Positions 57,874 through 61,151 of a stretch of DNA of 64,000 nucleotides are shown one piece after another. Both the position numbers and the translations under genes were made by a program. Location of the stretch: positions 682,001-746,000 of the forward strand of contig JBDOQK010000004.1 of the NCBI GenBank assembly GCA_040437565.1, written 5' to 3'. Positions within the stretch are counted from its first letter, which is position 1. Every line of letters starts with the position of its first letter. Source of the stretch: Albugo candida (Eukaryota). Below the pieces are notes generated by a model. It made no database searches and was not told where the DNA came from. It worked only from the letters and a program-made list of their open reading frames with translations.

Positions 57874-60800
57874 TTAAATCCTGGGTCGTTTAGGCTGTAT
57901 GTAGTCTTGTATCGACACTAGCAAATTGTTAAAGCTGGTACTAAAGCCCACTCTTGGAGTGAAGTGATGGAGCTGCATTCGCGAGAATGTGTACTGCTTG
58001 TCGAATCCGAGCTCAACGAGATTTAGCATGACTGGAAGTATACAGCGTCCAATTTGAGCTGCTTCGTTCATTTGTGACTCGAGCAATTCATTTTCCGAGC
58101 ACTCTTTTGTCAAAATCGGAAGAACCGCTGAGCATTTTGTGACTGCTGCCTCATAGATCGTTTTCCGAATTGTGACGTCCCACTTTGCGTTTTCTGGAGG
58201 ACCTTCAATGCATACGCGGAAGCCGTTCGCGAAAAGCTGATCTGCCAAACGCATCACAAAGTCCAGGTGATGATCTCCATGGAGGATGAGCACATATGGC
58301 AAAGTTAAGTCAACCTGAGTATCCTCCGCATTTTCCGGCATGTAAAAAATCCCATATTGATCAGTTTTCCGAGCGATACTCTTCAATCGACGATGATTTG
58401 AGATTGAAATTCGCTCGTGTGTTCGCTCGGCAATGTGCTCTTGTACGCGGAGTAAAAGAAGGCGTATCACGGCTGTGTACTTTTCCTCATCGTATACGTA
58501 AGAAATATTCCTCTTGTCCGACTTATCAATGTCGATGATCGAAGGCTCGAACGAGACGATGGCGCTTGAATCAATATAGGCTTTGAGATCACTGTCAATT
58601 ACAGCATTTTCGGTCGACACAGCGACGATCGGAGTGCCAACTTCCCTCGCTACCGCTAATTCTTTCAAGCACCATTCTGATTTCGGGTAATCTTCTGTGA
58701 TAATCGCGACAACCAAGACAGCACTGGTGATACCGCGTGCTATTTCCTCCCTCCATACAGCCCCACCACCAATTCCACTTGGATCCACTACAAGAATTCA
58801 CACGTGAGAAAGAAGATCCATGATTAATGGACCAGTATACTTAGATCAAGCCATGTGGTGATAGAAGCGTCTTCGAGATCTTTACGAAGTCGTTTTGCAA
58901 ACTCGCTGTGTGAATGTGTATAACTGATCATAACGTCACGTTTTCCAGCGGCTCGCTTGATTTCGTATTGTAAGTTTGTCGCTGTCGTGCAATCCAGCGG
59001 TCGAAATCCATCGTGATTCGTCATCATCAAGTCTGCTCCGCATGAAAGCAATGCTAAAGAGGTCTCCAGATGTTCTTTTTTGACAGCGATATGCAAAGGA
59101 GTGTCACCATTGGGAAGCTGCTCATTGATATCTGCGCCTGCATTCACCAAATGCTTTATGCCTTCCTTCGATGTGTTTTGGAATTGTGCCGCACAATGGA
59201 GAGGAACCATCGAATACGAGTCTCTCAGTTGCACATTTGCTCCACGCGACGTCAGAATATGAATGATACTGGAACGGCCTGTGCGCGCAGCCCAATGCAA
59301 AGGCGTTCGTCCTTTTGCGTCCTGGAAATTTGGATCAGCACCACGCTCCAGCAATAACTCAACTGTCCCCTGCATTCCATTGACTGCACCCCAATGCAAA
59401 GGAGTTCGACGATGAAATCCTTGGTAGCCTTGTTCTCCCAAACAATTTGGATCGGCTTTCGCTTTAAGAAGCTTCCGAACTTTGTTGACTTTATTACTCG
59501 CTGCAGCAGAGTGAAGTGGAGTGAGCGCAACATCGCCTCCCCACTGCTCTAATTCAAACGCGACTGGAATATTGCCTCGTAAATAAGCAAGCTGTAGGGC
59601 GGTGAGCGTATTCATTCGACCGGGATCAGGAACCTGAAGATGATTTGCTCCGGCTTGCATCAGAATTCGTACAATTTCAGCATTATCAGCGAGAAAAAGC
59701 GGAGGCACACGCTCCGACCAATATGACGACTTTGAATACAGATTCACATCGGCACCATGATCGATCAGCCATTTGACCGATTCAATCTGTCCTCTTGCAA
59801 CAGCACAATGCAAAGGTGTCACAAGCGTCGTCCGGAACACCGTTGTGGCTGTTTCGTCGTAACTCGCTGCAGGCCGCGACACGAATGCCTGAGCAAAATA
59901 CCAGAAAAAGTCTCCGGTCGTGAAGCGAACTCGCATGACTTTGTCAAGACTATTCACCGAAAAATGGGCGGCATGAAGCATCTTAAGAACAGTGACATTT
60001 CCTTTCTGAGCAGCAATATGCATTGGATTCTTTTTTGATTCACCAAAGAAAAACAATCGAAACGCTGGTGTCCGGTACATCCATTTTCCAAAATCAACGC
60101 CGAACAATCGCTGTCCTCTGGCAATGAGTTTTTCAATTTGAGAGAAATCACCGACTTTGGCTGCTTTGTACAGCTGCTTTCGAAGGGTGCTTTTCGACTG
60201 AGCTGCTTCAGAACGACACCATCGATATTTTCCTCCGAATCGCGAGCGTATATCGCCACTTTGATCGCTCTCTTTGAAGGCTCCCAATTGCATCTTTATG
60301 TGCTCTCGGAATCGCGCAAAGTATCGGAGCTGTGTAAATGTAAGACAATACGCCACAAAAGCACCAGTAGCATACAATTGCACCACACTTTCAGAGCACG
60401 ACAATGTTCGACCTTGAAATAAGCTCCAAAGAAAATAAAAGAGTACAACGAGGTTGATGGCCAGCACTATCACACCGAGTGCTTCACAGAACTGCAAGTA
60501 AAACGTACGACGAATCTTTGTAATTGCTGTGTGAAATTCGGTTTGAATGCGTTCAGAGTGCGAGTTTCGATGAAATGGCTCAAAAATGCGCCAACCAGTG
60601 GCAGGAAGCCCCAGCAAAATAACAATTGGAAGCATATGGAATACCATAGTTGCGTACACCACGATCGTTGTGCAATTCGTGTCGCATCTCACGTGTGGAG
60701 CGCATTTTTCTGAGCGTAATGCCAATGATTTCCAAAAATTATGCACCTTAATACCGCTATCTTCATTTCGACTATCAAACACGTAATATAATACGATTCC

Positions 60801-61151
60801 GAGCGTGTCTATCGTACACAATAAAACCATGCAATCTCGCAATTTACAAGCGAAATACGAATTCGACTGATATCCTCTGCCAAGTAAATACTTTGGTAGC
60901 GGTCGGGCATTTCCATTCAGCACCAGAGACTCTGTTCCCTTCATCGGGTCTTCTAACACGGGAAGCGTATCGCACGCTGCAATGGACCCTGATGGATGAC
61001 AAAGTGTGGCTTCGTCACGATGCGGACGATAAGCTCCTGCACCTTCACTATCGCCTCGTTTTAATACGTCTGCGGATTTAGAAATTTCGCTATGAACAAT
61101 GTGAACTGGCGTAAGCGTTGTTCTCGTTTCATTCATTCGGTGCGCAGCCAA
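57874..61151 (-). CDS. Multi-pass membrane protein with ankyrin repeats and two tandem TIR domains (~1074 aa, 2 exons)
   Basis: About four hydrophobic segments in the N-terminal third; about ten ankyrin repeats (NPMHIAA, TPLHCAV, TPLHSAA, TPLHWGA, TPLHWAA, VPLHCAA, TPLHIAV); intron 58788-58840 joins DVMISYTH...TWLDL|MDPSGIGGGAVWREEIARGI...SEWCLKEL (TIR_2-type); second degenerate TIR YVLILHG...AVTKCSAVLPIL...CILPVML. Confidence 0.85.

Follow-up and report, generated by a model that had tools for sequence, protein, structure and literature searches.

A predicted membrane-anchored ankyrin-TIR-TIR protein of Albugo candida with one catalytic-type and one degenerate TIR domain

A spliced gene and its two exons

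The window analysed here is a stretch of 64,000 nucleotides from the oomycete Albugo candida (GenBank assembly GCA_040437565.1, contig JBDOQK010000004.1, positions 682,001 to 746,000 of the forward strand); positions given below are counted from its first letter. On its reverse strand lies a real, expressed gene of two exons, which is spliced to give a product of 1069 residues. The protein carries a four-helix membrane domain, an array of ankyrin repeats and two TIR domains, of which the first (TIR1) is of catalytic type as judged by its sequence and the second (TIR2) is degenerate (Table 1). Exon 1, counted from the first ATG at 61136, comprises 765 codons and one further base, with which the Met766 codon opens; it encodes an N-terminal tail, the membrane domain, the ankyrin array and the initial ~36 residues of TIR1. 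The remainder of TIR1, a long linker helix and TIR2 are encoded by exon 2. The intron (GTATAC...TTGTAG, 58840..58788 on the reverse strand) splits the codon of a methionine as A|TG, and the product reads '...ITTWLDL-M-DPSGIGGG...' across the junction; if left unspliced, the frame of exon 1 runs into a stop five codons on (SILVH*).

Table 1. Features of the ankyrin-TIR-TIR gene and its neighbours in the window
Feature	Position	Strand	Basis
5' untranslated leader (minimum extent)	61137..61173	-	Ends of the transcript-like contigs of X1 and X2
Coding exon 1	58841..61136	-	Open reading frame and translation
Four-helix membrane domain (residues 100-274)	60315..60839	-	Hydropathy; AF2 model
Juxtamembrane helix 'FARFREHIKMQLGAFKESDQSGD' (residues 275-300)	60237..60314	-	Conservation; helical in model
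Ankyrin-repeat array with conserved insertion (about residues 330-730)	58947..60149	-	Pfam; conservation
TIR1 (residues ~730-884, split by the intron)	58432..58949	-	Pfam TIR_2; AF2 model; fold matches
Intron, phase 1, GT..AG, 53 nt, within TIR1	58788..58840	-	Sequence; contigs; profile; homologues
Coding exon 2	57874..58787	-	Translation; TAA stop at 57874-57876
Long helix prolonging the last TIR1 helix and joining TIR2 (residues ~866-906)	58366..58488	-	AF2 model (model residues 147-187)
TIR2, degenerate (residues ~926-1065)	57889..58308	-	Pfam in relatives; hhalign; fold matches
First exon of the downstream gene	57291..57701	-	Pfam Esterase
Upstream neighbour, SNF2-family helicase (876 aa)	61277..63907	-	SNF2-rel_dom and Helicase_C profiles

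Contigs of four public runs (X1, X2, X5 and X6) were aligned to positions 57600-61400. The RNA nature of X1-X4 is an automated guess, none of these runs being on record as RNA, and X1 and X2 stem from one study; we took X1 and X2 as transcript-like because their contigs end near the 5' end of the gene and skip the intron. One contig of each of these two runs lacks exactly positions 58788-58840, a segment with CT..AC ends on the forward strand, and the intron is kept in a 19.5-kb DNA-like contig of X6. The intron site lies outside the coverage of the X5 contigs. Within the coding region the intron is the sole gap in the X1 and X2 contigs. On the 5' side, these transcript-like contigs reach a short way beyond the ATG, to 61167 and 61173; no contig piece fills the interval between these ends and the contig of the neighbouring gene, which begins at 61187 in X1 and at 61227 in X2.

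The Pfam TIR_2 profile is continuous over the junction: exon 1 finishes with a match to its positions 1-30, and exon 2 opens with a match to positions 34-95. An annotated A. candida protein (P0003) and the homologues P0004, P0051 and P0006 all read 'WLD[LQ]MDPSGIGGG' over the same point, and the start 'MNETRTT' is common to the A. laibachii orthologue P0004. Four unspliced exon-1-like open reading frames from other contigs, 52-56% identical (P0005, P0010, P0013 and P0019), have the ending 'WLDLS...', the serine being the codon formed by the A and the GT of the donor. The motif '(M/V)DPSGIGGG' opens five of the six exon-2-like frames printed from other contigs (P0155-P0160), and the exception, P0159, starts 19 residues further upstream before reading 'VDPTGIGGG'; a beginning of the same type is found in the window's own exon-2 frame, P0154. 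The ends of the exon-1-like frames and the starts of the exon-2-like frames agree, and the position of the intron is therefore conserved in the family. A preliminary description of this DNA had joined the two frames across a 53-nt GT-AG intron that splits TIR1 and had looked to spliced reads as a check on it. The contigs, the profile and the homologues all agree with this structure, and the transcript-like contigs contain precisely that splice. Of the span that it gave to the gene, the stop end at 57874 is correct, and the other end, 61151, lies 15 nt upstream of the ATG.

TIR domains, ankyrin array and membrane anchor

Against Pfam TIR_2 (PF13676, cutoff 28 bits) exon 2 alone scores 56.1 bits and the end of exon 1 scores 21.2 bits, and spliced homologues reach 87.6-113.7 bits. 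TIR2 of the A. candida protein stays under the cutoff at 24.9 bits; its relatives have a clear second TIR_2 stretch at this place, and comparison of the TIR1 and TIR2 profiles with hhalign gave a probability of 96% (E 3.8e-9). On this profile evidence TIR2 is homologous to TIR1. An AlphaFold2 (AF2) model of the last 350 residues (mean predicted local distance difference test score (pLDDT) 85.6; predicted template modelling score (pTM) 0.60) contains both domains and the helix that joins them, in which 'QFRLLLDGVRDEIEK' is conserved among relatives. Nine solved TIR structures match TIR1 with VIA-align Z scores of 13.5-15.6, among them Hydra TRR-2 (15.6), SARM1 (15.3), C. elegans TIR-1 (15.1) and RPP1 (14.4), and superposition on the SARM1 TIR yielded a root mean square deviation (rmsd) of 2.5 over 123 residues at 19% identity. 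For TIR2 the matches include an RPS4/RRS1 entry (13.8), Cat1 (13.4), IL-18Rbeta (13.2) and TIRAP (13.0). In the model, both domains adopt the flavodoxin-like alpha/beta TIR fold. A Foldseek search with the two-TIR model returned mostly two-domain SIS-type phosphosugar isomerases and GFAT isomerase domains (template modelling (TM) scores 0.21-0.27, rmsd 18.4-21.6), which we read as artefacts because two flavodoxin-like domains were aligned at once; the RPP1 tetramer stood at rank 5 of this search.

The putative active site separates the two domains. TIR1 contains the motif 'SEWCLKEL', in which Trp804 and Glu808 (codon 58660-58662) form a W-x-x-x-E pattern; in SARM1 and AbTir, too, the tryptophan is said to lie four residues ahead of the catalytic glutamate. 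In the model Glu808 is the fifth residue of helix alphaC; all 70 rows of our alignment (A3) have a glutamate here, and Trp804 and the glycine-rich BB-loop 'MDPSGIGGG' are kept in at least 90% of the rows. At the aligned positions of TIR2, the tryptophan and the glutamate are replaced by Leu1000 and Gln1004 (codon 58072-58074), again in at least 90% of the rows, and the family consensus at this site, 'DQLAFAEDK', is kept to the same extent. According to a recent preprint, a glutamate protruding from helix alphaC is the defining, essential residue of NAD+-processing TIR domains (bioRxiv 10.64898/2026.04.20.719644); TIR1 has this residue and TIR2 does not. Since TIR2 lacks both the catalytic glutamate and the tryptophan, it is probably catalytically dead. 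The protein would thus pair one catalytic-type TIR domain with another that should be inactive yet is itself under constraint.

The same motif emerged from sequence comparison with solved structures. In a phmmer search of the PDB with exon 2, 'SEWCLKEL' was aligned with 'SSWCLDEL' of a plant TIR deposited as an ADP-ribosyl cyclase and with 'SDWCWDEL' of the Cat1 TIR, both within a set of weak matches (E 0.075-1.5). A profile search of the PDB sequences with A3 gave mostly ankyrin proteins and was uninformative for TIRs, having been swamped because the alignment kept full-length rows. Among plant TIRs, those of 7xoz, RPP1 and L6 align with the 'S-x-W-C-L-x-E-L' motif of TIR1, and the TIR heterodimer entry of RPS4/RRS1, reportedly a pairing of an active with an inactive TIR, is the best fold match of TIR2. 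The A. candida protein differs from such plant pairs in that it has no NB-ARC or LRR, carries both TIRs fused in one chain, is membrane-anchored and comes from an oomycete.

The ankyrin array is recognised by Pfam ankyrin families with E values from 3e-55 to 3e-25 (Ank_2 3.3e-55; Ank 4e-47). Ankyrin repeats are classical interaction modules.

Residues 1 to ~95 are hydrophilic, with no segment resembling a signal peptide, and are followed by hydrophobic helices at about residues 100-122, 155-179, 214-240 and 250-274. A 72-row alignment served to build the AF2 model of this region, which has high confidence (pLDDT 83.9, pTM 0.76). Two cysteines in the predicted outer loops, Cys155 and Cys247, are invariant in 72 of 72 rows, and Cys217 is kept in 70; Cys155 and Cys247 possibly form a disulfide on the outer face that stabilises the anchor. 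The outer loops are predicted to be short, at 32 and 9 residues. Lysines and arginines number 15 on the proposed inner segments vs 7 on the outer ones, a bias that favours, only modestly, an arrangement with both termini inside and the rest of the protein in the cytosol. From sequence, then, the N and C termini most likely face the cytosol. In the juxtamembrane helix that follows, the columns of F267, R269, R271, H273, M276, L278, G279, A280, F281 and E283 (numbered as in P0003) are invariant or nearly so.

Pfam gave no match to the N-terminal 300 residues, even at E up to 10, and a Foldseek search of the PDB with the membrane model returned nothing at E <= 1e-3. An exhaustive VIA-align comparison of this model found four-pass proteins at Z 7-10.7, namely the tetraspanin PRPH2/ROM1 (10.7), LRRC8A (9.4), synaptophysin (9.3), a de novo calcium channel (9.1) and connexins (7.0-8.2), with uroplakin also among the matches; all are below the caution level for helical bundles, a Z of about 13. 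PRPH2/ROM1, synaptophysin, connexins and LRRC8 share with the A. candida domain an up-down four-helix membrane bundle and conserved outer-loop cysteines, and differ from it in that identity is 2-11%, that its outer loops are much shorter and that Z stays below the level of kinship. The best score in a protein atlas search with the membrane domain was 0.83 (TMEM117 0.82), under the level of a lead. The membrane fold is generic, and its sequence is lineage-specific. The main domain assignments of the preliminary description are thus borne out: about four membrane helices with a cysteine-containing loop by hydropathy, the AF2 model and the placement of Cys155 and Cys247 in outer loops, the ankyrin array by Pfam, and two TIR domains by the AF2 model and VIA-align, TIR2 being below the Pfam cutoff.

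The oomycete family and the neighbouring genes

The annotated A. candida protein P0003 (1063 aa) is 100% identical in local alignment, with three substitutions overall and a different start. It is named 'unnamed protein product [Albugo candida]' or 'TIR domain-containing protein' by its sources. The gene is therefore already in public databases with the correct splice, yet uncharacterised, as the preliminary description had allowed for homologues of the protein, and the family extends across oomycetes. A search with the full-length protein returned 543 proteins at E <= 1e-3. Among the 120 matches listed, every entry that names an organism is from an oomycete, the remainder being unnamed metagenome or run-derived proteins; the genera among them are Albugo, Pythium, Globisporangium, Phytophthora, Nothophytophthora, Peronospora, Plasmopara, Hyaloperonospora, Bremia, Peronosclerospora, Saprolegnia, Achlya, Thraustotheca and Aphanomyces, which we take to include saprotrophs and animal pathogens besides plant pathogens. 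The membrane domain found only 34 matches among 1.84 billion representative proteins. Ten relatives were looked up, seven of them membrane-domain matches (P0119 and P0120 among the ten came from the full-length search only), and all seven that are named are from oomycetes, Lagenidium included. A word-indexed search with exon 2 against candidates of 166-531 aa gave 26 matches, all apparently fragments of the family itself and none of them bacterial or from another named lineage. As far as the matches carry names, the family is restricted to oomycetes.

Each species has 2-4 paralogues across the oomycetes. A quick maximum-likelihood tree was made from 43 rows chosen from the 120 matches listed together with P0150, with partial models mostly omitted. 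It shows two old clades in the lineage of Albugo, Pythium and Phytophthora and two in the Saprolegniales. Of the three A. candida paralogues, the window gene and P0150 share one clade, and P0051 falls in the other. The Albugo pairs in the clade of the window gene sit on long stems (0.76 and 0.87), and their join is flagged as possibly artefactual; the end branch of P0051 is 0.62. Between the window and the run contigs we counted 19 differences, 14 of which fall in coding sequence (11 synonymous and 3 non-synonymous). Low copy number, class-wide orthology and purifying selection argue against an arms-race receptor repertoire. A conserved signalling enzyme would fit this pattern, as would a conserved executioner of the SARM1 kind.

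Several further observations concern the family and the contigs. The contigs of X1 and X2 have a 3-nt insertion (CAC) after position 57800 in the 3' untranslated region and several substitutions, which indicate strain-level variation among A. candida isolates. Each of X1, X2 and X6 also has another, distinct contig that aligns with the window only over two short conserved stretches, 60009-60038 and 60260-60278, with loose ends on both sides, consistent with a paralogue (P0051 or P0150) elsewhere in the same genome. The run-derived protein P0119 (957 aa) is a very divergent member, with 32% identity and an end branch of 2.42 (2.04 in the rooted tree); it has the same transmembrane-ankyrin-TIR-TIR layout, an intact glutamate motif ('WCMKEL') and 'DQLAFAEDK' in TIR2, and its source may be an oomycete that branches deeply or a member of a sister lineage. 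Database names within the family (among P0062, P0130, P0133 and P0127) are inconsistent: 'RxLR effector candidate protein' in H. arabidopsidis, several times 'TRP Ca2 channel', 'Calmodulin' for a 2513-aa model from Lagenidium and 'mitochondrial chaperone BCS1-B' in P. nicotianae. The Lagenidium models of 2513 and 2664 aa may be fused gene models or real fusions. We rejected the RxLR label of the H. arabidopsidis entry (P0062) for the A. candida protein, because its N-terminus is hydrophilic, its first 100 residues hold no RxLR motif and it is multi-pass.

Genes are closely packed at this locus. Downstream on the same strand, a gene begins ~170 nt past the stop codon, with a Pfam Esterase match (PF00756, E 1.7e-7) in its first exon. 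The transcript-like contigs of X1 and X2 (5453 and 4895 nt) extend past 57600 into this Esterase gene, as the result either of overlapping transcripts or of assemblies that merge neighbours. The upstream neighbour is a helicase (SNF2-rel_dom, E 1.2e-64; Helicase_C, E 1.6e-26) whose stop lies 140 nt from the ATG of the ankyrin-TIR gene, and gene spacing is therefore very compact.

Candidate function and its alternatives

The reading that we favour, with a probability of roughly 0.55, is that the protein is a TIR enzyme, tethered to a membrane and facing the cytosol, that converts NAD+ into products of the ADP-ribose (ADPR) or cyclic ADP-ribose (cADPR) type. The four-pass domain would be an anchor that holds three cytosolic modules at one membrane. 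TIR1, with its NAD+-processing site intact, would make these products as signals, regulation or the binding of partners would fall to the ankyrin array, and the pseudo-TIR2 would be a non-catalytic partner in TIR-TIR contacts that either helps to assemble the active site of TIR1 or restrains it. We infer the topology, the enzymatic activity and its product, as well as what the ankyrin array and TIR2 do. The preliminary description had proposed an NADase; for TIR1 this stands as a prediction, given its invariant glutamate and its tryptophan, and for TIR2, with glutamine and leucine in their place, it does not.

A precedent comes from P. nicotianae, one TIR domain of which made cADPR in E. coli in a glutamate-dependent manner (Hurieva et al., bioRxiv 10.64898/2026.04.20.719644); like TIR1, it is an oomycete TIR with the catalytic glutamate. 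According to its authors, enzymatic activity had not previously been demonstrated for a TIR of any protist. All P. nicotianae entries returned by queries with the A. candida protein's own parts are members of the ankyrin-TIR-TIR family.

Several points weigh against an enzymatic, cytosol-facing protein of this kind. NAD+ processing is a prediction both for the A. candida protein and for the identified family members. The tested P. nicotianae TIR may or may not be one of these; the word 'ankyrin' is absent from the preprint's text, and 'TM' is among its figure abbreviations (bioRxiv 10.64898/2026.04.20.719644). TIR1 is nearly as close in fold to the non-catalytic adaptor TIRs of MyD88 (Z 14.7) and MAL (Z 13.5) as to the matches given above. 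The arrangement of TIR1 and TIR2 relative to one another is uncertain because the pTM of the model is only 0.60. Finally, the charge bias behind the topology is modest, and loop 1 and loop 2 hold six lysines and arginines each.

Raw of Drosophila and Olrn-1 of C. elegans offer another example of two TIRs in one chain. Raw is described as having two TIR domains and hydrolysing cADPR, with a pocket proposed between both TIRs, and it is called transmembrane in a title within the reference list (PMC13455253). It is unlike the A. candida protein in its DD1-TIR1-DD2-TIR2 layout, which includes no ankyrin repeats, and its residue sets F354, C359, E396, E422 and D946, R949, Y953, D956 have, by eye only, no visible counterpart in 'SEWCLKEL' or 'DQLAFAEDK' (PMC13455253). 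In the legend to Fig. 7B of the same source, the trees of Raw or SARM1 TIRs include a clade labelled 'Oomycete', on which the text does not comment (PMC13455253). Full-text searches of the literature, with figures and supplements outside their view, found no paper on an oomycete transmembrane-ankyrin-TIR-TIR architecture. We regard the combination of a lineage-specific four-pass anchor, ankyrin repeats, a catalytic-type TIR and a pseudo-TIR as new, the gene itself being already annotated.

An unlikely alternative that deserves most attention is a regulated executioner or immune sensor resembling SARM1, in which the ankyrin array and the membrane domain would keep TIR1 inactive until a signal of danger or infection led to oligomerisation, NAD+ depletion and either cell death or defence against viruses or mycoparasites. 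The TIR domain with a tryptophan ahead of its alphaC glutamate comes after a stretch of helical repeats, as it does in SARM1 and C. elegans TIR-1, so that sensor-like repeats and a catalytic-type TIR parallel the SARM1 layout, and the structural match of TIR1 to the SARM1 TIR (Z 15.3) and the invariance of the glutamate fit this scheme. SARM1 reportedly has an ARM-SAM-TIR layout with tandem SAM domains and is likewise said to be conserved, low-copy and membrane-associated, so conservation does not by itself exclude an executioner. However, Pfam finds only ankyrin and TIR in the A. candida protein, with no SAM, ARM, NB-ARC or death-fold domains; it has ankyrin in place of ARM repeats, a four-pass anchor and an extra degenerate TIR, and is not a SARM1 orthologue. 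It has very short outer loops, of 32 and 9 residues, each species has only 2-4 paralogues, which fall into orthologous clades across oomycetes, and within the species 11 synonymous differences stand against 3 non-synonymous ones. Immune roles for protist TIRs are raised in the discussion of the preprint, but it also reports that most cADPR-producing eukaryotic TIRs did not deplete NAD+ (bioRxiv 10.64898/2026.04.20.719644). We see no specific support for the immune-type or cell-death receptor of the preliminary description, in view of the few paralogues, the strong conservation, the excess of synonymous differences, the diverse lifestyles of the genera concerned and the near absence of an ectodomain.

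Next in order, and doubtful in our view, is a scaffold devoid of enzymatic activity, both TIRs being purely interaction modules as in TLR/MyD88 signalling, with the ankyrin array recruiting partners to the membrane. It would accommodate the resemblance of TIR1 to adaptor TIRs (IL-1RAcPb, Z 13.9, besides MyD88 and MAL) and of TIR2 to TIRAP and IL-18Rbeta, the absence of the catalytic glutamate from TIR2 and the general role of ankyrin repeats in interactions. What it leaves unaccounted for is TIR1: the glutamate is found in 70 of 70 rows, and the tryptophan and the BB-loop are nearly invariant from Saprolegnia to Albugo, a conservation that is difficult to understand unless the domain has a pocket for catalysis or ligand binding, whereas most adaptor TIRs of the TLR and IL-1R pathways have lost the glutamate, according to the preprint (bioRxiv 10.64898/2026.04.20.719644). 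Toll-like and IL-1 receptors, which are single-pass with a large ectodomain and a TIR in the cytosol, also differ from the A. candida protein in build, the latter being four-pass with outer loops of 32 and 9 residues and showing no Pfam match to an LRR or Ig ectodomain.

Very improbable is an ion channel, in which the membrane domain would oligomerise into a pore gated by the cytosolic domains: several relatives are named 'transient receptor potential Ca2+ channel (TRP-CC) family' by databases, and the best membrane-fold matches include LRRC8A, connexins and the de novo calcium channel, but those Z values are under the caution level, the A. candida protein has only four hydrophobic helices where TRP channels have six and shows no Pfam match to a pore loop or an ion channel, its ankyrin array lies after the membrane domain, not before it, and no TRPA, TRPC, TRPM or TRPN homologues were found in P. 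infestans or S. diclina, according to Zheng and Mackrill (PMC4820453). The TRP names most likely stem from ankyrin similarity, because TRPA1 and NOMPC were matched only via ankyrin columns.

Within the favoured reading of a membrane-tethered NAD+-processing enzyme, a more specific version can be put forward as a speculation, which we hold to be less probable than either the executioner or the scaffold. The family would be the missing ADP-ribosyl cyclase of oomycetes, the active TIR1 and the pseudo-TIR2 forming one regulatory pocket, and cADPR or a related nucleotide, made at a defined membrane, would release Ca2+ via the oomycete-specific RyR-domain (PKDRR) channels. In P. infestans and S. diclina, Zheng and Mackrill found no homologue of CD38 (PMC4820453), and a cyclase of this type, if real, would explain Ca2+ signalling in organisms reported to be without CD38 (PMC4820453).

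TIR domains are now viewed as ancient NAD+-processing enzymes, and their cellular roles outside animals, plants and bacteria are barely known. The A. candida gene belongs to a strongly conserved, low-copy, oomycete-wide family in which an apparently intact TIR site and a probably dead TIR are set on a lineage-specific anchor. Oomycetes include major pathogens of crops and fish, and their spore biology depends on Ca2+ signals; CD38, the classical enzyme for cADPR formation, is reported to be missing from them. If TIR1 makes no cADPR-type messengers, this would be merely another automatically annotated TIR-domain protein; if it does make them, the family would connect oomycete signalling with NAD+ metabolism and would provide a lineage-specific target for study.

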